A stretch of 16,084 nt of DNA, taken from contig DAOTYG010000103.1 in assembly GCA_034435155.1 (NCBI GenBank), forward strand, positions 1-16,084, in the 5' to 3' direction. The notes beneath the pieces were generated by a model. That model ran no database searches. It was not told the origin of the DNA and saw only the letters and a program-made list of their open reading frames with translations. Positions 5,545 through 16,084 of this stretch are shown in pieces. Position numbers and translations under genes: made by a program. How positions within the stretch are numbered: the stretch's first letter is position 1; each line of letters starts with the position of its first letter. The stretch is from Anaerolineae bacterium (GTDB lineage Bacteria > Chloroflexota > JAHJIN01).

Positions 5545-5593
5545 TTTGAGCAACTTTTTCCATCTATTGAGGCTATTTAGAGGATGGTGAACT

Positions 5594-7849
5594 ATGCGCA
5601 TCCGTGCCGGTTGGTTGTCGCTCTTTTGTCTGGGCTGTATGTTGCTCAGCACCGTGTGGTCTATTCAGGAGGCCAAATGGACCCCGGCGTTGGATTCGCT
5701 CGTCCCGGTCACATTGGCAGCCCTGATGATGGGCCTGGTGCTAAGTCATCTCCGCTATCCGCGCTGGGTGGCCAACCTGTTGGGCCTATGGGCCGGTGGT
5801 GAGTTTATCACCTTCCAGATGGCGGCCATCGTGGCCCCTGGCCCGACCTTCGAACTGCGAGAGCGGCTGCTCCTGGTGGGCTGGCGTCTCCAGCAATGGG
5901 GGCTGGCGGTCATCACTGGCGCGTCCAATAGCGATCATCTCATCTTTGTCCTACAACTCTCTGTGTTTCTGTGGCTTATTGCCTTTGTGGCGGCCTGGCT
6001 GGTGTTTCATAGCCATCGGCCGTGGTGGGCTATCGCCCTGACCGCGATCCCGCTGCTCATCAACCTCTATTATGCCCGCCATCTTAACCCCAACGGTTTT
6101 CTGATCTTTTTCACCGGCAACGCCCTCGTATTGCTGGTCCGGCACAACATCCAGATGCAGGAAGACGCCTGGCTGCGCGCCCGGGTCTCTCGAACGGCCG
6201 ATGCCCACTGGGACCTGCTGTGGACGGGCGTGACGATCACCCTGTTTTTAGTGACCGCAGCCTGGGTGGTTCCTGGCGCTTCCATCAGCGAGGCGGTGAG
6301 CACCGCCTGGGAAAACATGAGCCAGCCCTGGCAGGATTTCCAGATGCACTGGTATCGCCTGTTCTCCGCCCCGGAGGCCGGAGCCGGGACATTGACCCGC
6401 TTCGATGGCACATTACGTCTGACTGGGCCGGCCGTCCTGCCGGATACGCGGGCGTTAGAGATACACGCCCCTCGGCCCCATTATTGGCGAGCCGTAGCCC
6501 TGGATCACTATGATGGGCAGCAGTGGACGACGACCGCCGCCGTGGAGGTGTTGGTCGAGGAAGGCGATAATGCGATCCGGGATCGCGTTGAGCTGGCCTA
6601 CCGCCGGCGCGAGGTCATGGTCCAGCGGATCCAACCCCGGCGGCCCTATGGGGGTTTGCTGCTGGCGGGTGGGCAGTGGCTCAAGGCTGACCGCGCGGCC
6701 ACGATCAAGACTTATGTGGACCCGGCCAGCCCCACCATTGCCGCTGCTGAACTGTCTGATGCAGCCCTCGTTTACGGGCGGTTCCTCCTGTTCCGCAGCA
6801 GCGAATATGTGGTCGAGTCATCGTACTCGGTGGCCTATGTGGAGGAATTGCAAGGGGCTGAGACCCAATACCCGCCCTGGATGCGGACGCGATTCCTGCA
6901 ACTCCCGGCCAGCCTGCCGCAGCGCGTGCGAGATCTGGCCCTGGGGATCACCGCAGACGCGCCGACTCCCTATGACAAGGCTGCGGCCATCGAGCAATAC
7001 CTGCGCCAGAATTATACCTATGATCTCTTTGTCGGCGAACCGCCGGCGGAGGCCGATGCGGTAGACTATTGCCTGTTCGAGAGTCGGCGGGGATATTGCA
7101 GCCACTTTGCCTCGGCCATGACGGTGCTATGCCGGGCCGTGGGGGTCCCGGCACGCCTGGTCACAGGCTATAGCAGCGGCGAGTATGATGAGGAAGAACA
7201 CCTGTATGTGGTCCTGGAAAGCCATGCCCACGCCTGGGTGGAGGTCTTTTTCCCAGGGTATGGATGGGTTGAGTTTGAGCCTTCGCCGGGGGTGGCGGCC
7301 CTGGAACGTCAGCGGCAACCGGTGCCGACCGGCCCCTCCGGCAGCTCCCAACCCGGCGGTGGTGGGGAACCGCCCCCGGAGCGCGAGCTGCGCGGGGTAG
7401 AAGAGGTAGAAGTGCCCCCCGATACGACACCCGGCCTGGGACGCGGTTTCTCGTTGGGGTGGGGCGGTTGGTTAAGCCTGCTGATTGGGGTGCTGGTGGC
7501 CGTGCTCGCTGGCAGTGCCTGGGCCTGGTGGCGATGGGGCCTGCGCGGGCTGACGTTTGTGGATGCGGTCCACGAGCGAGTACGCCGCCTGGGGCGCTTA
7601 CTGGGGCTTAAGCAGGCTCCATATCAGACGGACCACGAGTATGCTGCCGTGTTGAGCGACATCGTGCCGGCCGGCCAGCCGGAGATCTCGACCATCACGA
7701 CGATGGTCGTCCAAAGTCATTTTGGGCGGCACAAACCCGGACCAGAAGACCATGACCGGGTCTGGGCAGCCTGGGAACAGTTACGGATCAAGATGTTGAG
7801 CCTGGTATGGCAACGGGTATCCGCCTGGCTGTCGCGCCAGGAGCACTAA
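5594..7849 (+). CDS. TgpA-like transglutaminase-domain membrane protein (N-terminal polytopic DUF3488-like region, transglutaminase-like Cys-His-Asp core, extra TM helix, C-terminal DUF4129-like domain)
   Basis: 751 aa with about 7 N-terminal TM helices. The core is [35 protein letters not shown]...[19 protein letters not shown], which is the transglutaminase-like superfamily signature. A late TM ([22 protein letters not shown]) precedes the tail [14 protein letters not shown]...SHFGRH. Confidence 0.85.
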
Positions 7850-7912
7850 GTTTTGTCTGGTTCCAGCCTGGCATGGGGGCAGGGGTATCTCGAACGTCGC
7901 GGTTAAAGCGGT

Positions 7913-7948
7913 GAGGGCACGGACGGGTGCCGGCCCATCCGTGCCCTC
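7913..7948. other. GC-rich hairpin between convergent genes (GAGGGCACGGA ... TCCGTGCCCTC, 11-bp stem)
   Basis: Inverted repeat with no U-tract on either strand. It may act as a factor-dependent terminator or an RNA stability element, which is uncertain. Confidence 0.3.
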
Positions 7949-8060
7949 GTGCAAAGGAGGAGAGGAGCAGTTGTTCACTGCGCCCCCTATGATACCTCAT
8001 TTTGTCCGTTCTCGCTGGTCGAATGCTAAACGTTTGCCTGACGCAACCCCTACGTTTACC

Positions 8061-8984
8061 CTACGATTGCCCTGTGCCAGCCAATGCCTGTGCGATCTGC
8101 GCGGCCACGGCGGCGTTATTCAGCAGCAGGGCCACGTTAGCGCGCAATGATTCGCCGCCGGTGAGGTCCTGAACCCGGGCCAGTACAAAGGGGGTGAGCC
8201 GGCTGCCGCGCACACTCTGCGTCTCTGCCTCGGCCAGGGCCTGGGAGAGAGCGGCCTCCGCGGCCTGGCCGGCCAATGCCTGCTCCGGCGGCACCGGCAC
8301 GGTCACGAGCACCCCCTGACCCCCCAGTTCCCAATGCGTCCGCGCGATGGCCGCCGCCTGCGCCGGATCATCCACGCGCGCATCCACCGGCAAACCGCTG
8401 TGCGGCGAATAAAAGGCCGGGAACTCGGCGGTGCCGTAGCCCAGGACCGGCACCCCCCACGTCTCCAGATATTCGCGGGTCTTGGGTAAATCGAGCAGGG
8501 ACTTGGCCCCGGCACAAACTACCAGCACCGGCGTCCGGGCCAGCTCCGGCAGGTCCGCCGACACGTCCCACGTCTCCTCCGCACCCCGGTGCACCCCGCC
8601 GATCCCCCCGGTGGCGAAGACGCGAATCCCGGCCTGGTGCGCGATCCACATGGTGGCAGCCACAGTGGTGGCACCATCGGCCCGCTGCGCCACGGCGACG
8701 GCCAGGTCCCGGCGGCTCACCTTGCGCACCTCATCACTGCTCGCCAGCCATTCCAGGGCCTCATTGTTCAGGCCCACGCGAATACGGCCGCCCAGGATGG
8801 CGATGGTGGCCGGGATGGCCCCGTGCTGGCGTACCGTGGCCTCTATGAGCAGGGCCACCTCCAGGTTCTGGGGCCGGGGCAGCCCGTGGGCGATGAGGGT
8901 GGACTCCAGGGCCACTACCGGCAGGCCGGCGCCCAGCGCAGCCTGCACCTCCGGGGCGAGGTGAAGCAGTGTTTCTTCAGGCAT
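8061..8984 (-). CDS. psuG: Pseudouridine-5'-phosphate glycosidase
   Basis: 307 aa and collinear with YeiN/PsuG along its whole length: PEVQAALGAGLPVVALESTLIAHGLPRPQN, ATIAILGG, KVSRRDL, GATTVAATM, VFATGGIGGVHRGAEETWDVSADL, VVCAGAKSLLDL, TREYLETWGVPVLGY and LTGGESL. Confidence 0.95.
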   Translation of the reverse strand: MPEETLLHLAPEVQAALGAGLPVVALESTLIAHGLPRPQNLEVALLIEATVRQHGAIPATIAILGGRIRVGLNNEALEWLASSDEVRKVSRRDLAVAVAQRADGATTVAATMWIAHQAGIRVFATGGIGGVHRGAEETWDVSADLPELARTPVLVVCAGAKSLLDLPKTREYLETWGVPVLGYGTAEFPAFYSPHSGLPVDARVDDPAQAAAIARTHWELGGQGVLVTVPVPPEQALAGQAAEAALSQALAEAETQSVRGSRLTPFVLARVQDLTGGESLRANVALLLNNAAVAAQIAQALAGTGQS

Positions 8985-9083
8985 GGGATTCAGTTCCCAG
9001 AGTGACGAACGACCGCTGACGAATGACCACCGACGGGGGACTGCGGTCAGCGATCTGCTGTCGGCAGTCGGCGGTCAGCGGGC

Positions 9084-10007
9084 CTACTCGCGGTACAGGG
9101 CATCCACGCTCAACTCCCGGCTCACGGCGTCTGGGGAACAAAGGGTGATGGTGGCGGCAGAGACGCCCAGGCGCACCGCTTCGTCCACCGGCAGGTCGTG
9201 GAGGAGGCCAAAGACCACGCCGGCGGTGAGGGCGTCGCCGGCCCCGGTGGCATCCACGACCGGGCAGCGGATGGCCGGGATGTGGCCGCTGACCTCCGGT
9301 GTGGCATAGACCACGCCGCCGGCCCCCAGGGTGATGAGGGCTACCTGTACGCCGGCCGCCACCATCTGCTGAGCCGCCTGGGCCGCATCGGCCTGGGTGT
9401 AGATGTGACAGCCGCACAACACCTCGGCCTCGGCCAGGTTGGGAGCCATGATGGTGCAGCGGTCCAGGTAGCCCTTGAACCGCTCGGCCAGCACCACCGA
9501 GGTGGGGTCCACGCAGACCGGCACGTCGTATCGTTGGGCCAGGGAGAAGGCCCGGCGGATGGCTGGCGGGTGCAGGTTGCCATCCAGGACCAGCATTCCA
9601 GCACCACGGATGAGACGGCGGTGCGCTGAGATATACTCCGGGGTGATGGCGGCGGCGATACCCATGTCGTCCAGGCCCACGGCCAGCGAGCCGTCCGTGT
9701 CCACGATGGCCAGGTAGGTGGCGGTGGGGTATTCGGCCGTGCGGAGCACGTGGCTCAGGTCCACGCCGGCCGCGGCCGTCTGGGCGAGCACCTGCTCGCC
9801 AAAGGGGTCCTCGCCCACGGCGGTGAGGAGGGCCGTGGGCACGTCCAGCCGGGCCAGGTTCTCGGCGACGTTGCGACCCACGCCACCGGCGGTGCGGCGC
9901 ACCGTGCCGGGGTTGGAGGTGGCCGGGACCAGTGGCTCGCGGGTGCGGCCCCGGATGTCCAGGCCGGCGATACCGATGACGACAACGGGGGAGACATTCA
10001 TGAGCAC
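9084..10007 (-). CDS. psuK: Pseudouridine kinase (PfkB/ribokinase family)
   Basis: 307 aa with PfkB motifs NPGTVRRTAGGVGRNVAENLARL near the N-terminus and the catalytic ATGAGDA near the C-terminus. The overall pattern matches YeiC. The ORF-track start is a GTG at 10007, and an ATG two codons in (10001..9999) is an alternative start. The overlapping 363-aa ORF 8977..10068 is a GC-rich shadow frame. Confidence 0.9.
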   Translation of the reverse strand: MLMNVSPVVVIGIAGLDIRGRTREPLVPATSNPGTVRRTAGGVGRNVAENLARLDVPTALLTAVGEDPFGEQVLAQTAAAGVDLSHVLRTAEYPTATYLAIVDTDGSLAVGLDDMGIAAAITPEYISAHRRLIRGAGMLVLDGNLHPPAIRRAFSLAQRYDVPVCVDPTSVVLAERFKGYLDRCTIMAPNLAEAEVLCGCHIYTQADAAQAAQQMVAAGVQVALITLGAGGVVYATPEVSGHIPAIRCPVVDATGAGDALTAGVVFGLLHDLPVDEAVRLGVSAATITLCSPDAVSRELSVDALYRE

Positions 10008-10025
10008 CTCGGAACCAATCCTCGT

Positions 10026-10994
10026 TTAGACCGGCTTGAGCACCGCCAGCGCGATCCCCCGGACGCACAGGCTGGGGTCTTTCCTGAACTCGTATATCTC
10101 CTGGTATTCTGGATTCGCTGATTTTAGGTAACAGCCCCGATTATCGCGGCAGAACCGCTTGACCAGCGATTCCGTTCCTCCCTCACACCCTCGCTCTACC
10201 ACCACGATCTGCCAGTGCTCCGCATCGGGTTGACCGTGAACCAGCACCAGATCACCATCGTGAATCCCGGCATCCACCATGCTATTGCCCCTCGCCTGGG
10301 TGATAAAATACTTGCCGGTTGCCCTGAGTGTGGGCAGGTGGGCGGCTATCCCCCCCACCGGTTGCGGCAGATATGTCTTACCACCTATCAGTACCTCTCC
10401 GGTGGCCGTAAGTTCGATCTGCTCCCAGATTTGCGAGACGTACTGCCACGGAGGGCCGGCCGAGGAAAGCTCCATTCGGGGAATCCAGCGGGCGGTTTCC
10501 CAACACTCGTTCAGCACCCGTTCCATCTTTTCACACCACGAACGCCGCTCTTTATAGCCATACCCGATAGGCCGCTGCGCGCAAAGGCTATGAAAGCAGG
10601 CATCTGCCATCTGATATTCAGCCTGTACGTCGGCCAATGGTTGTTGGCGCAGGCTGGCGAGGTTGCCCAATATGACGTGCATCACCGCCTCTCCCTGACG
10701 GTTCCCCCGACAACGAAAAACCTGGCACGCCTCCTGGTAACAGGCCAGAGTCTGGTCGAGGTCGTTCAGTTCTTGCCGGATGATCCCTTTTACCACCAGG
10801 GCCTGCGCTGGCGCATTTGCATCTACCAGTCCATCTATTGCGCCACAATCCTGCTCCGCCCACTTCAAAGCCTCCCCCCATTCTCCCCGCTTGCAGGCTT
10901 CTAAAGCCTGCTGGCAAGCCCGCGATAGTTTGCCGGTGGGGCTGGTCAGTTCCAACAACGAGATGATCGTCCGCACAGATTCCTGTTCTTTCAT
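10026..10994 (-). CDS. S24 (LexA/UmuD-type) serine peptidase-domain protein with a ~190-aa non-HTH, helical/TPR-like N-terminal domain
   Basis: The C-terminus has the S24 signature ITQARGNSMVDAGIHDGDLVLVHG...HWQIVVVE...GTESLVKRF, with the Ser in GNSM and the Lys in VKRF. The N-terminus (MKEQESVRTIISLLELTSPTGKLSRACQQALEACKRGEWGEALKWAEQDCG...) has no recognisable winged-HTH and looks helical-repeat-like. Confidence 0.7.
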   Translation of the reverse strand: MKEQESVRTIISLLELTSPTGKLSRACQQALEACKRGEWGEALKWAEQDCGAIDGLVDANAPAQALVVKGIIRQELNDLDQTLACYQEACQVFRCRGNRQGEAVMHVILGNLASLRQQPLADVQAEYQMADACFHSLCAQRPIGYGYKERRSWCEKMERVLNECWETARWIPRMELSSAGPPWQYVSQIWEQIELTATGEVLIGGKTYLPQPVGGIAAHLPTLRATGKYFITQARGNSMVDAGIHDGDLVLVHGQPDAEHWQIVVVERGCEGGTESLVKRFCRDNRGCYLKSANPEYQEIYEFRKDPSLCVRGIALAVLKPV

Positions 10995-11011
10995 CTGCCA
11001 TACCCTCCAAT

Positions 11012-12232
11012 CTACGAGACCCGTTTGAATCGGCTCTCCAGCATGTTCAAGGTCTTGACGATGTCATCTGGCAGATAGATGCTACGAGCGGATGCCGTCC
11101 GCTTGATCATGTCAATGAAGCTCAAAACGACCAGGTTCTTGGAGATCCGCTGGCCCTGGCGGGCCATCTCGGCGAACAGCCTGGCGGTATCCGTCAACAT
11201 ACTGATGCGGATCTCAGCCCGGGCCTGCATGGCGATCTTGTCGCCCAGGGCTTTGCCCTCCGCGATCGTTTTCGCCTCCTCACGGGCGCGCTCTGCCTGC
11301 CAGGTATCTATCCATTGCTGGAGCACCTTGTCTTGTAATTCGATGTCCCCCAGGGCCACACTCAGGATCCGGGCACCCAGCCGGGTGGTAGATTGGCGCA
11401 GGCTGTTCTCCAACTCTTTCTGCACGGCCGCCCGGCACTCGGGCTTGATGAGTTCGTCGAGGGTGTAGCGGGCCAGGATGGACCTCAGCGTGCCCTCCGT
11501 ATCGCCGATCACCACCAGCTTGATCCAGCTCATCACCCGGTCAGGCTCGGTTCGCCAGGCCTCCCGGATCCACTTGCAGGTGGCCGCCTTGAAGATGTCC
11601 TCTTCCTTGTCGCCGACCTGGAAGCGCACATCCGCGTTGTACTTGATGGGGATCCCGTCGTGGGTGATCGCGCTCACCTTGAACTCCCACCGTTGCGGGC
11701 GCAGGTCAATGATGTCCCAAACCTTCTCAAAGGGGTCCAGGCGGGGCGGGGGCAGCGGAAACGGCGGGACATGGGAGCCACGAAAGACCCGGCTGAGCCG
11801 GCCGGCCCGCTCCAGCACCACCGCGCTGTCGTTGTAGAGGACCAGGCCGCACGGCCCGCCGACCCTTCGGACCACGTTGCTGCCCGTAGCGATCCGGCCC
11901 TCCTTGATCACCAGGTAGGGGCCGCCAGACATCTGCCCCAGCAGACGGGTGCTCAGGAAGGCCCGGCCTTCCTTGTCCTTTTCCAGCCCATACAGGGAGC
12001 GCACGAAGCGGCCGGCTACCTGCCAGCCGATCCATAGCGCGGTCAGGCCGGGGATCATGCCCAGCAAAACTGGGCCGCCCAGGTCGAGGAAAGAGGTGGG
12101 CCAGGGCCGGATGCCCAGTTGAAAGGACAGATAGACGGCCCCCAGGCTCAACAAAAACCACAGGCCCACGACGAGCAGGCCCGCCAGGGCGATCTTGACG
12201 AAATAGACCAGGGCACGACGGGGATCAAACAT
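11012..12232 (-). CDS. SPFH/Band-7 (stomatin/prohibitin/HflKC-like) domain membrane protein with 2 N-terminal TM helices and a C-terminal coiled-coil
   Basis: 406 aa. Its SPFH core VVLERAGRLSRVFRG..IDLRPQRWEFKVSAITHDGIPIKYNADVRFQVGD fits the pattern seen in QmcA/HflK (V.ERFG...R...PG......IDLR.Q.......T.D...V.VD..V.F.V.D). Charged helical segments follow, such as QAERAREEAKTIAEGKALGDKIAMQARAE. Confidence 0.75.
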   Translation of the reverse strand: MFDPRRALVYFVKIALAGLLVVGLWFLLSLGAVYLSFQLGIRPWPTSFLDLGGPVLLGMIPGLTALWIGWQVAGRFVRSLYGLEKDKEGRAFLSTRLLGQMSGGPYLVIKEGRIATGSNVVRRVGGPCGLVLYNDSAVVLERAGRLSRVFRGSHVPPFPLPPPRLDPFEKVWDIIDLRPQRWEFKVSAITHDGIPIKYNADVRFQVGDKEEDIFKAATCKWIREAWRTEPDRVMSWIKLVVIGDTEGTLRSILARYTLDELIKPECRAAVQKELENSLRQSTTRLGARILSVALGDIELQDKVLQQWIDTWQAERAREEAKTIAEGKALGDKIAMQARAEIRISMLTDTARLFAEMARQGQRISKNLVVLSFIDMIKRTASARSIYLPDDIVKTLNMLESRFKRVS

Positions 12233-12257
12233 AACTTGCCTCTGAGATCGTCTGGGG

Positions 12258-13922
12258 CTATCGCCCCCGCCGCATACCGGTGAGCAGAGCGTCTTCGGAT
12301 GGGGCAGGTAGTTGGGCTGGTTCTTCCCCTGGCTCTACCATGGTCAGGGCGTCAATCAACTGAAACACCAGGGCTTCGTCAGAGAGGTGGACGGCTTCTC
12401 GCTCCAGGATGCGGGTGAGGGTAACCATCATCTTGAGCTGGGCCTGAGTCCACACCGGGGCTAATTGAAGAATGCGTTCGGCTTTGGTCCGGCCGATCTC
12501 GATCTCGATCCGCCGCTGCCAGTTCGCGGCCCAGTTCTTGATCCGCTGTTCCACGATCTTGTCAGGGGGCATGATGTTGCTGATCCCACCCCCCACCATC
12601 TCGATGCCGTAGGGTCTCATCGCTTCCCGCACCCGCTCTCGAAAGGTTTTGGCGATCTCGACGCGGGGGTCCCCCGGCGCATGTAGCGCGTTGCAGGTGT
12701 AATTCAGGATGATCTCCTTGAGGATCGGCGGCCCAATGATCAGCACCAACTCGTCCCAGGGGGTCTTGGAGATGTCTTCTCTGGCCTGCTTATTTTCGTC
12801 GCGTTCCCATTTGTGCTCGATCAGGGTGCGACGAAAAACGGCGTCCAGGACAGCATCTCGATTATAGGGGTACGAATGGCCCAACGTCGGTTGTCGCCCA
12901 TCGGCGCCGATCCGGTGCGGGAAAAAGGTAAAGATGGTGACCGTGATGCCATCCTGGGTCTCGGCCTTGATCCCCTCGTGGATGCGCAACTGGGGGCGCA
13001 GGTCCACCACGGCATACAGGTCCTCGTATTTCTCGGTGAAGCTCAGGCCCGGCGGGACTACCCGCAGGCGGAAGCCGGTGGTGGTTACGGCCACGTGATT
13101 GCAGTCATTGAGGATGATGCCCGGCCCGGCCAGGAACTGGCTGAAGGCATTGCCGGGCACGCGGGGGTCTGGTTTCTCCTGCTCCTTGTTCTCCTGAGTC
13201 TTCCAGTCCTCGATGACATAGTAAGGGTAGTTTGTGCCCAAGGCGAAGGTGATCAGGCTGCGGAAGGCCTGCCGCCGGTGATGTTCCTGGCGCGCTCGCT
13301 CATCGTTCTCCAGGGGGAGGATCAGGCCGGAGAGGAAATAGAGGAACCCCCAGAAGATCAACACCGCCGGCGCGGCGATCAACAGCAAACCCAGGCGTTC
13401 AGCGATCCCGTAGCCGATCAGGCAGGTGAGGCAGAACCAGAACCAGACCAGGCTCAGGGGTTTGACCCCCTTGCCGCGCAACACGGCCTTGCTGAATAGC
13501 CAGGGGCCCAGGATGCCGACCAGAGCGATGGCGATGAGCAGGCCCAGGGCGCCGGGCCATTCCCTCAGGCCCCCCAGCAGCGCGGGGGGGTAAAAACAAA
13601 GAAGGGCTGCCAGTACGGCAAACCCTTCCACGATCAACGCGCCGATCATCTCGGTAAGAAAGTAACCCGCGGCCCCGGCCAGGACGTAGGTCCACACGGC
13701 GATCTCCAGGATCGTCATCTCCGGGCGCTCCAGGGCCTGGGGCTGGACCAGGGCCACCGGGAGGAGGCCGAGCAAGGTGAACGCCTCCATGAACAGCGTG
13801 ATGCCGCCCAGGATCGCCAGGCCCTTGCTCCCCCCGGCGCCCTTGAGCCGACCCAGGGCATAGCCCGCGGCCGCCGCCAGGCCGCACGCCAGCCCCATCT
13901 CCACGAGGAGCGTTATCACCAT
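12258..13922 (-). CDS. Polytopic membrane protein (about 6-7 TM helices) fused to an SPFH/Band-7-like domain; paralog of the downstream gene
   Basis: 554 aa. Roughly the first 200 aa are hydrophobic helices. The SPFH-like core is VAVTTTGFRLRVVPPGLSF...VVDLRPQLRIHEGIKAETQDGITVTIFTFFPHRI and shares the DLRPQ block with the 406-aa paralog. The gene sits 25 nt upstream of that paralog. Confidence 0.7.
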   Translation of the reverse strand: MVITLLVEMGLACGLAAAAGYALGRLKGAGGSKGLAILGGITLFMEAFTLLGLLPVALVQPQALERPEMTILEIAVWTYVLAGAAGYFLTEMIGALIVEGFAVLAALLCFYPPALLGGLREWPGALGLLIAIALVGILGPWLFSKAVLRGKGVKPLSLVWFWFCLTCLIGYGIAERLGLLLIAAPAVLIFWGFLYFLSGLILPLENDERARQEHHRRQAFRSLITFALGTNYPYYVIEDWKTQENKEQEKPDPRVPGNAFSQFLAGPGIILNDCNHVAVTTTGFRLRVVPPGLSFTEKYEDLYAVVDLRPQLRIHEGIKAETQDGITVTIFTFFPHRIGADGRQPTLGHSYPYNRDAVLDAVFRRTLIEHKWERDENKQAREDISKTPWDELVLIIGPPILKEIILNYTCNALHAPGDPRVEIAKTFRERVREAMRPYGIEMVGGGISNIMPPDKIVEQRIKNWAANWQRRIEIEIGRTKAERILQLAPVWTQAQLKMMVTLTRILEREAVHLSDEALVFQLIDALTMVEPGEEPAQLPAPSEDALLTGMRRGR

Positions 13923-13937
13923 TGCCTCTTGCCCTCG

Positions 13938-13950
13938 CTGTTCCGAACAG
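13938..13950. promoter_or_regulatory. Perfect 13-bp palindrome CTGTTC-C-GAACAG in the leader of the SPFH operon (candidate operator)
   Basis: It lies between the predicted -10 (13977..13972) and the AAGAGG Shine-Dalgarno of the 554-aa gene. Its half-sites are GTTC/GAAC in the reverse order of the Cheo box at 481..496. Confidence 0.4.
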
Positions 13951-13971
13951 CCAGCCTTTACGCGTGCTTAG

Positions 13972-14000
13972 ATTATATCATCTTTCAGGCGAATGCGCAA
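13972..14000 (-). promoter_or_regulatory. sigma70-type promoter for SPFH-S24-psuKG operon (TTGCGC-17-TATAAT on minus strand)
   Basis: Reverse complement reads aTTGCGCattcgcctgaaagatgaTATAATcta. It gives a leader of about 40 nt to the ATG at 13922. Confidence 0.45.
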
Positions 14001-14069
14001 TACTTCGATGACCACGATTCAGGGCCACGGTAGGGCCTACCCGGTGAAATCCTTTGTTGGACAAAACCG

Positions 14070-14098
14070 CCTACCCTCCCGCAGGTTTGGGCGCAATG
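14070..14098. repeat. Solo/degenerate copy of the IS66-like terminal repeat (CCTACCCTCCCGCAGGTTTGGGCGCAATG), identical over 29 bp to 1437..1465 of the MITE
   Basis: Exact 29-bp match to the MITE's left arm. Similarity decays downstream (to about 14130) and no right TIR is present. Confidence 0.55.
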
Positions 14099-14144
14099 GG
14101 TCAGACCAGAGCATGTTTCGGCTTGCATATTAGGATGTCGGATG

Positions 14145-14173
14145 TTGACAGATGGTGTGGTCTCTGGTATAAT
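14145..14173 (+). promoter_or_regulatory. Consensus sigma70 promoter TTGACA-17-TATAAT upstream of the 4-TM protein / SIR2 gene pair
   Basis: gatgTTGACAgatggtgtggtctctggTATAATttt. Both hexamers are perfect and the spacer is 17 bp. Confidence 0.5.
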
Positions 14174-14336
14174 TTTAATGAAGCGTAAGAAGGCGCACAG
14201 GCATGGCAGCGAACACAATGGCCGGTTGTGCTTTCGGAGTTTCTCAGCGACAGATGTGAGGCGTGGGGAGATGTTTACCACAGATACGGTGGACCGGAAA
14301 TTGGGCACGGAGGAGCGGGCTGCCCTCGACTAGCGG

Positions 14337-14885
14337 GTGCTCCAGGCCTATTATGCCCGCCTGAACGGCATTGACGAGAACGTGCGGGACCTGACCAAGT
14401 TCTTCTTCGGGATCAACACCCTGGTCATCGGCCTGGTCATCCAGTTCGTCAAGGACGACGTGCAGCAACTTATCCTTGCCATCTTCGGCTACTCTATTTC
14501 CGTGGCCATCTACCTGATCACATACAAGTACTTCCTGTCGTGGAAGCTATATGCGCGGGACATGGACGAGCTCGAGGACCGGCTGGACTATGACATCTCG
14601 CGCCGGTACGGGGAGCGATTGGCCCAGACCCCCGGCAAGACCGTGCGGGTGACGCTGGTGCGGATGCGGTTCAACTTTCTCTTCGTCTTGTTTTGGCTGG
14701 GTGTCATCGCTTACTTTGGGTACAAGCTGTCCTCGATGTATTCCATCGGCTTCTGGGCCACGGCGCTACTATACGTCGTGGCCTTTTTTGTCGTGGCCGC
14801 TGCGCCGTGGGTCTACTTCGCCGGGACGTTGCGACCGGGGGTGCTCTGGGCCGTGGTGGGGGCGCTGTGGGCGCGGGAGGTGTGA
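14337..14885 (+). CDS. Small integral membrane protein (4 predicted TM helices), function unknown; frame is continuous upstream to ATG 14271 through an in-frame TAG at 14331
   Basis: 182 aa from a GTG start with strong GC3 bias. Hydrophobic segments are FFFGINTLVIGLVIQFV, LILAIFGYSISVAIYLITYKYFL, FNFLFVLFWLGVIAYFGY and FWATALLYVVAFFVVAAAPWVYF. The upstream in-frame ATG at 14271 has a GAGG Shine-Dalgarno 9 nt ahead, and its peptide MFTTDTVDRKLGTEERAALD ends at the TAG at 14331. Confidence 0.6.
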   Translation: MLQAYYARLNGIDENVRDLTKFFFGINTLVIGLVIQFVKDDVQQLILAIFGYSISVAIYLITYKYFLSWKLYARDMDELEDRLDYDISRRYGERLAQTPGKTVRVTLVRMRFNFLFVLFWLGVIAYFGYKLSSMYSIGFWATALLYVVAFFVVAAAPWVYFAGTLRPGVLWAVVGALWAREV

Positions 14886-14915
14886 GCGAAGGTTTGCTTT
14901 CCTGGGAGGACGATC

Positions 14916-15866
14916 ATGGCTCTTGAGGATGAGGTAAGAAGTCTGATATCGAGTGAAGTGCTGCCCAAGATCCGTAGGGATCAATGCGTCCTGTTCGTGG
15001 GAGCCGGCTTATCCTGCGAAGCCGGTTTGCCCAGCTCGAGCGACCTGGCGAGGAGACTTGGGCGAACGTTGCCGGAAAGGGAAAGACCAGAGCCGTGTAC
15101 TCTGCGTGAAGTGGCCGAGACATACTTAAGATTCCGCACCAAACAGGAACTCGTGGAGTTCGTCCAGGAAGCCCTGAAACCCATCCGGGGGGAAGATTTG
15201 AATACCACCACCTTTCGCCTGATCGCCCACATTCCACACCTCAACAGAATCATCATCACCACCAATTGGGATACCTTGTTGGAAGGGGCCATTCAAGAGG
15301 TAACAGGGGCACCTCCAGCAATTGTCGTGGAGGATATTGACGTAGGGGGACTGGCTGGTGCTCAATGCGCTATCTACAAGATCCATGGCTCTGTGGATAG
15401 GCCGGGGACTCTTGTGATAACCGAAAGGGACTACCGGCTCAAATATAGGGAGCTATTTGACCCCCGATCGTTGGTCATGGCCCATGTGCGTGCTTTGCTC
15501 GCCCGAAACAACATCATCTATGTAGGATATAGCCTGCGCGACGAGCATTTCGAGGAACTCCTGCGGGAAATTCGGTACGCTTTGACGTATCAAAAAACGG
15601 GAGAGTTCCTGGGCCGCACCAGCTTCCTGGTTACACCCGAAAAACCCGATCAAGAGACACTTAGACGCTTGAGAGGACTAGATATCAGGTGGATCAACGC
15701 TTCGGCACGAGAATTCTTTCAGTTCGTGTTTGCCGAAACAGCCGAGTTTGTCAACCGACAGGAAGAGCTCCAGTTGATTCGGTCGCTGAAGGAACCTTAT
15801 GTAGAGATACACGGCAGTGCGGGGACCGGCAAGACCAGGCTCTTGCGGGAATTAGCCAACAAATAG
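14916..15866 (+). CDS. SIR2-like (SIR2_2/defence-type) domain protein fused to the start of a STAND/NB-ARC-type NTPase, ending right after the P-loop at the IS terminus, consistent with IS-mediated truncation
   Basis: SIR2_2 motifs CVLFVGAGLSCEAGLPS, IIITTNWDTLLE, IYKIHGS and IIYVGYSLRDEHF. After them comes the canonical STAND start FVNRQEELQLIRSL...YVEIHGSAGTGKTRLLRELA. A stop follows 5 codons after the GKT, right at the IS-like terminus. The GC content looks visibly lower than in neighbouring genes. Confidence 0.75.
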   Translation: MALEDEVRSLISSEVLPKIRRDQCVLFVGAGLSCEAGLPSSSDLARRLGRTLPERERPEPCTLREVAETYLRFRTKQELVEFVQEALKPIRGEDLNTTTFRLIAHIPHLNRIIITTNWDTLLEGAIQEVTGAPPAIVVEDIDVGGLAGAQCAIYKIHGSVDRPGTLVITERDYRLKYRELFDPRSLVMAHVRALLARNNIIYVGYSLRDEHFEELLREIRYALTYQKTGEFLGRTSFLVTPEKPDQETLRRLRGLDIRWINASAREFFQFVFAETAEFVNRQEELQLIRSLKEPYVEIHGSAGTGKTRLLRELANK

Positions 15867-16084
15867 TAACTGCCTACCCTCCTGCGAGTAGGGAGACTGG
15901 CTGATGGGCAAAGAGGTTGCGCAGTGTCACAAAGACATTCCGCCCCTGCTTGCGACAGGTGGAAATCACCGCCTGCAAGCGGGCATATACCGTTGCTCCG
16001 TGCTCGGTACGGAAACAGCCGCTCACCTTTTGCTTGATTTTGGCCGGCCGCAGGTCTCGTTCGGCCTGGTTATTGGTGAACGGC
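15867..16084 (-). mobile_element. IS66-family-like insertion sequence, right end with 3' part of its transposase gene (CDS 15875..16084, continues beyond window)
   Basis: The minus-strand translation ends ...PFTNNQAERDLRPAKIKQKVSGCFRTEHGATVYARLQAVISTCRKQGRNVFVTLRNLFAHQPVSLLAGG*. This resembles the conserved IS66 TnpC C-terminus (NNxAERxLRP...GRKNWLF...YSLIxTCKLNG.NP). The terminus GTAACTGCCTACCCTCCTGCGAG begins with GTAA and matches the MITE TIR at 1426. Confidence 0.55.

Follow-up and report, generated by a model that had tools for sequence, protein, structure and literature searches.

A SIR2-STAND Gene Ending at an Insertion Sequence

Positions 1-16,084 of contig DAOTYG010000103.1 of an Anaerolineae bacterium (assembly GCA_034435155.1), hereafter called the window, end with an open reading frame (ORF) whose product begins as a SIR2-STAND protein, with a defence-type sirtuin domain followed by a STAND NTPase. 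The ORF stops shortly past the P-loop, at the point where an insertion sequence (IS) of the IS66 family begins (Table 1). It starts at an ATG preceded by the ribosome-binding site GGGAGG, 30 nt past an 8xMP-family gene, and comparison with the orthologue P0044 indicates that the complete gene had about 705 codons, of which the ORF represents the 5′ 45%. A preliminary description of the window had proposed that the IS cuts the gene just past the P-loop, and this is borne out by the mapping of the IS boundary, by alignments with orthologues, and by the lack of any relative that ends there.

Table 1. Coordinates of the truncated gene, the insertion sequence, and neighbouring features in the window.
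Feature	Position	Strand	Remarks
S24 peptidase gene	10026-10994	-	possible accessory gene of the module
Two Band_7/SPFH genes	11012-12232, 12258-13922	-	possible accessory genes of the module
Sigma-70-type promoter match	14145-14173	+	TTGACA-17-TATAAT with TG, 12/12; 164 nt upstream of the 8xMP start; consensus match only
8xMP-family membrane protein gene	14337-14885	+	PF24838, 38 bits; 30 nt upstream of the SIR2 ORF
Left boundary of variable cassette	14886/14887		95-96% identity ends one base past the 8xMP stop (L011 10619, L014 10706)
Truncated SIR2-STAND gene	14916-15866	+	316 codons plus hybrid stop; 75% identical to the 705-aa P0044 over 316 aa
Complete defence-type SIR2 (SIR2_2) domain, aa 1-280	14916-15755	+	catalytic-motif residues N117 (TTNWD) and H157 (KIHGS)
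STAND NTPase stub, aa 277-316	15744-15863	+	linker, strand 1, Walker A, first two-thirds of helix 1
Predicted 8-bp target site AACAAATA	15858-15865		from the 8-bp duplications of related IS copies; far end beyond the window
Hybrid stop codon TAG	15864-15866	+	TA of the Tyr317 codon plus G, the first IS base (DNA alignment with L015 and L006)
IS66-family (ISBst12-like, single-gene) IS end	15866-16084		element runs beyond the window; 219 bp inside
IS transposase gene, 3′ end	15874-16083	-	69 codons (15877-16083) plus stop (15874-15876); reads toward the junction

The SIR2_2 domain is complete, as had been claimed. All of the motifs listed earlier occur in the translation, namely GAGLS (residues 29-33), GLPSS, TTNWD (115-119), KIHGS (155-159), and VGYSL (203-207), and the Pfam profile SIR2_2 (PF13289) matches at 88.9 bits (cutoff 24.5; E = 4.4e-25) over positions 2-140 of 141. 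All of the 20 family members compared have N117, and at least 90% of them have H157. The NTPase is represented by its start only: residues 277-315 cover positions 1-46 of the 167 positions of AAA_16 (Pfam), with the Walker A motif GTGKT at residues 303-307 (nt 15822-15836). The preliminary description was right about this STAND start and its P-loop but placed the stop five codons after GKT, where there are nine (RLLRELANK). Ending at residue 316, the product retains Walker A and none of the later NTPase parts, as Walker B, the sensor arginine, and the helical and winged-helix domains are all absent; past the point matching residue 316, orthologues carry hhhhDS, RVIWATRYS, and the later domains. 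The motif and domain elements could not plausibly have arisen by chance. The ORF has a GC content of 0.53 and a GC content at third codon positions (GC3) of 0.61, against a GC3 of 0.82-0.86 in the 8xMP, SPFH, and more distant IndA genes, in agreement with the lower coding GC remarked on earlier.

The IS66-Family Element and Its Boundary

The IS end carries the 14-bp terminal inverted repeat GTAACTGCCTACCC at 15866-15879. An exact-match scan with 26 bases of this end, made against one genome per species, found three further loci, in one Chloroflexus sp. metagenome-assembled genome (MAG) and one Chloroflexia MAG. The four copies, that of the window included, have unrelated left flanks and begin to agree exactly at GTAACTGCC, which places the IS boundary at 15866. 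Approached from the other side, DNA similarity of the window to the orthologous loci L015 and L006 ceases after AAATA, at base 15865. Here the window reads GCC AAC AAA TA/G TAA CTG (the slash marks the junction), L015 reads GCC AAC AAG TAC AAG TAC, and L006 reads GCC ATT AAA TAT AGA TAT. Because the orthologues have Tyr317 (TAC or TAT) at this position and the IS starts at G15866, the stop codon of the ORF is a hybrid of gene and element. The GTAA-type terminus reported earlier is therefore present at the end of the gene, but it does not follow the stop codon; a boundary after the stop is ruled out, since the sequence shared among IS copies starts at 15866, within that codon.

The 3′ end of a transposase gene, likewise recognized in the preliminary description, lies on the opposite strand. 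It matches DDE_Tnp_IS66 at positions 253-283 of 284 (30.3 bits, cutoff 23.1; Pfam) and the NCBIfam IS66 transposase model at positions 327-385 of 387 (E = 4e-20), and a full-length relative matches the NCBIfam model at positions 3-325. The transposase stop is 8 nt from the IS tip and falls within the 14-bp inverted repeat. Two complete related copies (L007 and L009) measure 1439 bp each and have perfect 14-bp inverted repeats (GTAACTGCCTACCC and GGGTAGGCAGTTAC) and 8-bp target duplications (TCAAAATC around the L007 copy, CTTCCGTT around the L009 copy). A length of 1439 bp leaves room for the transposase alone, without accessory tnpA/tnpB. The window element is 82.6% identical to the Chloroflexus MAG copies over the shared 219 nt, and this identity to elements of 1439 bp suggests that the window copy would also be of the single-gene kind.

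A single transposase gene, GTAAC termini, 14-bp inverted repeats, an 8-bp target duplication, and a length of about 1.4 kb are shared with the ISBst12 group, the duplication and the length being known from the 1439-bp relatives and not from the 219 bp held by the window. ISDge4 of Deinococcus geothermalis, which belongs to this group, has the terminal inverted repeat GTAACTGCTCAGCA, an 8-bp direct repeat, and a 449-aa transposase (PMC12898284). At no more than 82.6% identity to the copies in the Chloroflexus MAG, the window element is a distinct isoform of this known group. In both complete copies (L007 3329-4767 and L009 701-2139), the transposase is split over two frames near NCBIfam position 325/327, which could mean that the gene is frameshifted or that frameshifting is programmed. 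A run of N with a duplicated IS end in L007 resembles a scaffolding artefact, and L008 (2023-2080) holds a solo remnant consisting of the first 58 nt of the IS end only.

Intact Orthologues and the Missing Part of the Gene

A first homologue search gave only three close relatives, of 254-534 residues. When 1.84 billion cluster representatives were searched exhaustively with a profile, 39 proteins matched at E < 1e-30, and full-length family members have 700-820 residues. The closest intact orthologue, P0044, aligns with all 316 residues of the window ORF and reads ...GKTRLLRELANK/YKYTDNWPNV... across the break (slash). The window product lacks about 390 residues relative to these proteins, far fewer than the 700-1200 supposed in the preliminary description. 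P0002 (69% identical) and P0004 (46%), two of the three relatives from the first search, also extend past the window C-terminus with KY..., Walker B, and later STAND motifs, and P0004, P0043, P0047, and P0048 (44-47%) likewise continue beyond the break. Neither search found a relative ending at the P-loop or the break, a family of proteins composed of SIR2 and a P-loop stub, an uninterrupted version of the window allele, or the IS-free homologues of about 316 residues with the same C-terminus that had been envisaged as the mark of a natural short form. Because the orthologues continue past the break and none ends there, the ORF is a truncated gene and not a natural short form.

Decay is common elsewhere in the family. 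P0002 has an in-frame TAA (L006 1505-1507) where its relatives have Tyr, and P0004 is frameshifted (L005 ~1690-1712) relative to P0027 from another sample. The partner gene that follows the SIR2-STAND gene in L011 (13060-15342) encodes 760 residues, compared with 1029 in L014, and is 93.5% identical up to its end. Some of these differences could be assembly errors at low coverage.

Predicted Structures and Known Sirtuin Defence Proteins

The AlphaFold model of the 316-aa product has a predicted local distance difference test score (pLDDT) of 84 overall, with values of about 77-94 for residues 1-270 and 71 for residues 271-280; the NTPase stub, from about residue 281 to 316, is poorly modelled (pLDDT 46-55). 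Its nearest solved folds are KomC, DSR2, and ThsA (Foldseek E-values of 2e-14 to 1e-11), with template modelling (TM) scores, normalized to the target, of 0.70-0.77 for chains of SIR2-domain size. In the P0044 model (pLDDT 89, predicted TM score 0.84), the SIR2 domain is followed by nucleotide-binding and helical domains, a winged helix, and a short tail of helices about 125 residues long. In that model, the break falls inside helix 1 (residues 306-320) of the nucleotide-binding domain. The truncated product is thus predicted to keep a SIR2 domain that can fold and includes the catalytic Asn and His, attached to an NTPase stub of 35-40 residues that is predicted to be unfoldable.

ThsA (Thoeris), DSR2, and KomC (Kongming) give the best sequence and fold matches of the window SIR2 domain and share its catalytic Asn/His motifs. 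In PADLOC, the best matches of the window ORF are to the SIR2 parts of PDC-S25, ThsA (7e-21), LmuA, Dsr1, and Dsr2. ThsA, DSR2, and KomC differ in their partner or regulatory domains (SLOG, HEAT-like repeats, and KomB), and none of the three has a STAND NTPase. According to the titles of the structure entries, all three have been solved as higher-order assemblies.

The preliminary description had placed the gene in the Avs5-like class, which holds for the architecture and the nearest fold and fails for the sequence. As in Avs5, an N-terminal SIR2_2 domain and a STAND NTPase share one polypeptide in the orthologues, an arrangement that is vestigial in the window ORF, and EfAvs5 (9jap) is the top Foldseek match of the full-length P0044 model, with AVAST5 (9nc9) also listed. 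A shared mode of action would be expected, in which trigger-induced oligomerization leads to NAD+ hydrolysis (PMC11897194; bioRxiv 10.1101/2025.07.08.663546). However, the match to 9jap has only 12% identity and a global TM of 0.25-0.29. No Avs5 model is among the PADLOC matches of the window ORF (E ≤ 0.1), of a related 796-aa allele (0.01), or of P0044 (0.001), and phmmer against the PDB, which finds ThsA, KomC, and DSR2, does not find the Avs5 chains 9jap and 9nc9. The orthologues are also shorter (700-820 residues) and end in a helical tail, according to the P0044 model, where Avs5 has a TPR, Sel1, or PPR sensor, and a second STAND protein with TPRs and a radical S-adenosylmethionine (radical-SAM) gene are co-encoded with this family. 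PaAvs5 has been described with an nSTAND3-type NTPase (PF20720); in the present family, P0043 has only a faint precomputed nSTAND3 match, and other members have weak NACHT, nSTAND1, nSTAND6, NB-ARC, or AAA_16 matches. With no detectable sequence relationship, no repeat sensor on the same polypeptide, and obligate extra genes, the SIR2-STAND gene is Avs5-like in architecture and nearest fold and is not demonstrably a member of Avs5.

Fate of the Truncated Gene

The ORF is interpreted as the 5′ part of a SIR2-STAND gene of about 705 codons that was cut by an IS66-family insertion and is most likely a recent pseudogene, a reading to which we assign a probability of about 0.87. The intact protein would consist of an N-terminal sirtuin of the NAD-hydrolase type, a STAND module of nucleotide-binding, helical, and winged-helix domains, and a short helical tail. 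An ISBst12-like IS66 element would have inserted between 15865 and 15866, breaking the NTPase in helix 1, completing a TAG codon with its first base, and uncoupling whatever lies downstream. In the characterized SIR2-STAND proteins and other defence sirtuins, NAD hydrolase (NADase) activity is turned on by oligomerization through the NTPase or partner domains. In EfAvs5, for example, activity requires filament contacts of SIR2 and NOD together with C-terminal bundling, and a C-terminal deletion of six residues already abolishes it (PMC11897194). Because the characterized relatives need assembly driven by an NTPase or a partner, the 316-aa fragment, by analogy, most likely cannot be activated; the SIR2 domain would most likely be inert without its NTPase, and the gene a recent pseudogene.

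Several points weigh against this reading. That the element was simply inserted, leaving the remainder of the gene beyond it, is unproven. The far junction that it predicts, GGGTAGGCAGTTAC followed by AACAAATA (GGGTAGGCAGTTACAACAAATA), was absent from JGI metagenome contigs in an exact search run without a positive control; a degenerate-pattern scan for the STAND remainder gave 515 pattern matches, of which tblastn confirmed 0; and protein searches with the C-terminal parts of P0002/P0004 and of P0044 returned only P0027 and P0002. These negatives are weak, since known family members were missed by the protein searches as well. Being 100% identical in the five assemblies in which it occurs, the ORF is uninformative about relaxed selection. 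Since a good Shine-Dalgarno sequence precedes the ORF and a consensus promoter lies upstream, the SIR2 fragment may still be made, and the proteins from which its loss of function is argued are only 12-23% identical to it.

The five assemblies support the reality of the junction. Besides the window, the identical 316-aa product occurs on contigs of four other metagenome assemblies (JGI 3300022548 and 3300010289; ENA ERZ27245573 and ERZ505355), all of which have the same junction and end 77-140 nt into the IS. Positions 14175-15909, which comprise the 8xMP gene with its upstream region, the ORF, and the first 44 bases of the IS, are 100% identical across the assemblies; beyond 15909, the IS part differs at 3-6 positions, which is attributed to assemblers having followed different copies of a repeated element. 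The window does end inside a multi-copy repeat, and these differences could be taken to suggest a chimera of the SIR2 contig with the repeated IS, in which case uninterrupted reads would run into ...TACAAATAC..., but independent assemblies by different assemblers agree on the junction and on its 44 IS bases, the break falls exactly at the mapped IS tip, and neither the homologue nor the profile search contains the uninterrupted allele, so that a chimera is very improbable. A natural short SIR2 protein with a merely P-loop-like C-terminus is effectively refuted. Proteins with SIR2_2 alone do exist, some of the matches having 204-300 residues in the profile search and 316-381 in the homologue search, yet the last 40 residues of the window product align residue by residue with the NTPase start of the orthologues and end in mid-helix, and the IS supplies part of the stop codon. 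Somewhat more room is left for a functional fragment, be it a free-standing or constitutively weak SIR2 NADase or a decoy, or for the IS as a reversible switch, though both are improbable; the switch by excision and the useful SIR2-only NADase raised in the preliminary description are unsupported. In favour of such readings, the fragment retains its catalytic motifs and an intact SIR2 fold, is preceded by a ribosome-binding site and a perfect promoter match, and occurs in five assemblies; against this, no family of SIR2-plus-stub proteins was found in either search, and identity across assemblies carries no signal of selection. Precise excision of an IS is rare, which counts against a switch. 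ISDge4 of the ISBst12 group is moreover reported to transpose by copy-and-paste (PMC12898284), and the defence sirtuins examined to date show no activity before other domains have brought about their assembly (PMC11897194).

The remaining alternative refines the pseudogene reading. The data are compatible with a simple insertion and with an IS-associated deletion, and the IS may sit at the edge of a deletion or rearrangement in which the 3′ 390 codons were lost along with the NACHT-TPR and radical-SAM partner genes that follow intact relatives. The remainder of the gene and the predicted far junction left no trace in contig, pattern, and protein searches, although these were incomplete (a lossy word index, no positive control, and contigs breaking inside repeats). 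Further scars of mobile elements at the locus make a rearrangement plausible: where syntenic strains have an HU-HIG gene, the window has a segment with an end like that of a miniature inverted-repeat transposable element (MITE), and a second IS (DDE_5) lies left of 14175 in the contigs of the other four assemblies (L001-L004). The partner gene itself is cut short in L011. We regard a deletion or rearrangement as unlikely, if by no means negligible. Whichever of the two applies, truncation of a SIR2-STAND gene by an IS is ordinary as an event, defence genes being costly and often knocked out by mobile elements; the present case is a clean example from an uncultured population, resolved to the base, with a hybrid stop codon. 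Its wider value is comparative, as the intact relatives reveal a conserved SIR2-STAND/NACHT-TPR/radical-SAM core with recurrent S24, SPFH, and 8xMP genes.

The Gene Module of Intact Relatives

Intact relatives are always followed by a gene for a NACHT-TPR STAND protein of about 1000 residues and, where the flanks allow, by a radical-SAM/SPASM gene next. In L015, the locus of P0044, the order is SIR2-STAND, a 993-aa TPR STAND, radical-SAM/SPASM, Band_7, TPR-S24, and a 373-aa unknown protein. L018 has S24, a 398-aa unknown protein (30% identical to the 373-aa protein of L015), SIR2-STAND, NACHT-TPR, and radical-SAM, and L020/L021 have Band_7, S24, a PD40 protein, a 96-aa ORF on the opposite strand, SIR2-STAND, NACHT-TPR, and radical-SAM/SPASM. 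Shorter stretches are seen in L016 (8xMP, SIR2-STAND, and the partner), L017 (SIR2-STAND and NACHT-TPR), and L005 (SIR2-STAND and NACHT). L011-L014 have 8xMP, the 796-aa SIR2-STAND, and an AAA_16/NACHT-TPR protein of 760-1029 residues, with radical-SAM/SPASM next in L014. Pairwise identities are 32-47% over the full length for the partner proteins, 43-63% for the radical-SAM proteins, 25-36% for the S24 protease domains, and 22-24% for the Band_7 proteins. In intact loci, SIR2-STAND is thus the first gene of a conserved operon, followed by the NACHT-TPR STAND and the radical-SAM/SPASM genes; these three genes span 10001-16290 in L015 and 10736-17299 in L014.

Four independent locus types have enough flank to show what lies beside this core: S24 recurs in every one of them and Band_7/SPFH in three, in three different gene orders (window 10026-13922, minus strand; L015 16440-20414; L018 3-1820; L020 3045-7350). 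The pairing of 8xMP with SIR2-STAND recurs in L011-L014 and in the unrelated L016, where 8xMP is 52% identical. On the strength of this recurrence beside intact relatives, the S24, SPFH, and 8xMP genes of the window probably belong to the same functional neighbourhood as its SIR2-STAND gene, and the 8xMP gene is probably co-transcribed with the SIR2 ORF.

The preliminary description had expected a sensor domain in the missing part of the window gene; instead, in every intact locus the TPRs sit on the neighbouring NACHT protein, the SIR2-STAND protein itself being without repeats. A Pfam scan found no repeat family on the 796-aa allele, and the existing annotation of the SIR2-STAND proteins of L015-L018 and L020 lists none either. 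In the intact module, it is proposed, the NACHT-TPR protein would sense a trigger and the repeat-less SIR2-STAND protein would execute NAD+ depletion. We suggest tentatively, giving the idea somewhat less than an even chance, that the loci encode an undescribed immune module in which a sensor-less SIR2-STAND executor, a sensor-type NACHT-TPR STAND, and a radical-SAM/SPASM enzyme, accompanied by S24 and often by SPFH/Band_7 and 8xMP, occupy a hypervariable slot. The module proteins match no system as such among the PADLOC models, the radical-SAM protein having only a generic pVip match. No paper combining SIR2-STAND, NACHT-TPR, and radical-SAM/SPASM components was found in the literature searched, nor anything relevant on 8xMP or "octameric membrane protein", and a 2021 survey of STAND proteins (eLife 2021) does not mention radical SAM, SPFH, or S24.

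The paired or helper nucleotide-binding leucine-rich repeat proteins (NLRs) of plants and the bNACHT systems offer a comparison for two STAND proteins encoded side by side. The likeness is that the effector (SIR2) is on a STAND that lacks repeats and the TPRs are on one that lacks an effector, which suggests that sensing and execution are divided between the two; the difference is that the radical-SAM/SPASM, S24, SPFH, and 8xMP genes have no counterpart there. Should the sensor-executor pair prove true, it would offer a bacterial model or analogue of sensor-helper NLR pairs with an added radical-SAM step, and the radical-SAM enzyme would gain a new role in immunity. The alternative of a cluster for ribosomally synthesized and post-translationally modified peptides, prompted by a HaaT-like TPR match of the partner (only 38 bits against a cutoff of 1125) and by the SPASM enzyme, was set aside as a remote thought, no search for a precursor gene having been made.

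The Strain-Variable Slot and Other Mobile-Element Scars

L011-L014 were reached through members of the 90% cluster of the 8xMP protein and are 95-96% identical to the window at the nucleotide level over 5569-14002 and 14221-14886. In the same slot, directly after 8xMP, they carry the 796-aa SIR2-STAND allele, which is only 33% identical to the window ORF. The operon thus occupies a strain-variable slot directly after the 8xMP gene, at which, to judge from these alignments, one cassette has replaced another between near-identical strains. The slot would be useful for studying the turnover of defence alleles.

The promoter match upstream of 8xMP is a candidate operon promoter for 8xMP and SIR2, judged by its agreement with the consensus. 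It lies at the right edge of a strain-specific segment, and L001-L004, whose sequence left of 14175 is different, are without it. In those loci, an IS with a DDE_5-type transposase (L001 1-725; also L002-L004) lies directly left of the position matching window 14175, and the segment of about 1.7 kb with 8xMP and the truncated SIR2 gene has a different IS element on each side. Between the second SPFH gene and 8xMP, syntenic strains carry a 133-aa HU-HIG/HU-type DNA-binding gene (L011 9165-9950); in the window, it is replaced by about 220 nt of unrelated sequence with a MITE-like end (14003-14220). A 107-aa minus-strand ORF at 13985-14308 is probably not a gene, as it has no family match and a low GC3 (0.56).

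No tRNA gene was found in the whole window, and no Rfam family reached its gathering threshold. Positions 1426-1535 hold a MITE-like element of about 105-110 nt; the left end of this element, GTAACTACCTACCCTCCCGCAGG, is similar to the inverted repeat of the IS66 type, and the right end reads CCTGCGGGAGGGT.... Part of a second copy, identical over 29 nt, is located at 14070-14098 (region 14063-14100). A 363-aa ORF at 8977-10068 (minus strand) has no Pfam match and a GC3 of 0.51 at a GC content of 0.70; its frame or start is probably wrong, since syntenic loci annotate a 305-aa PfkB-family kinase there.

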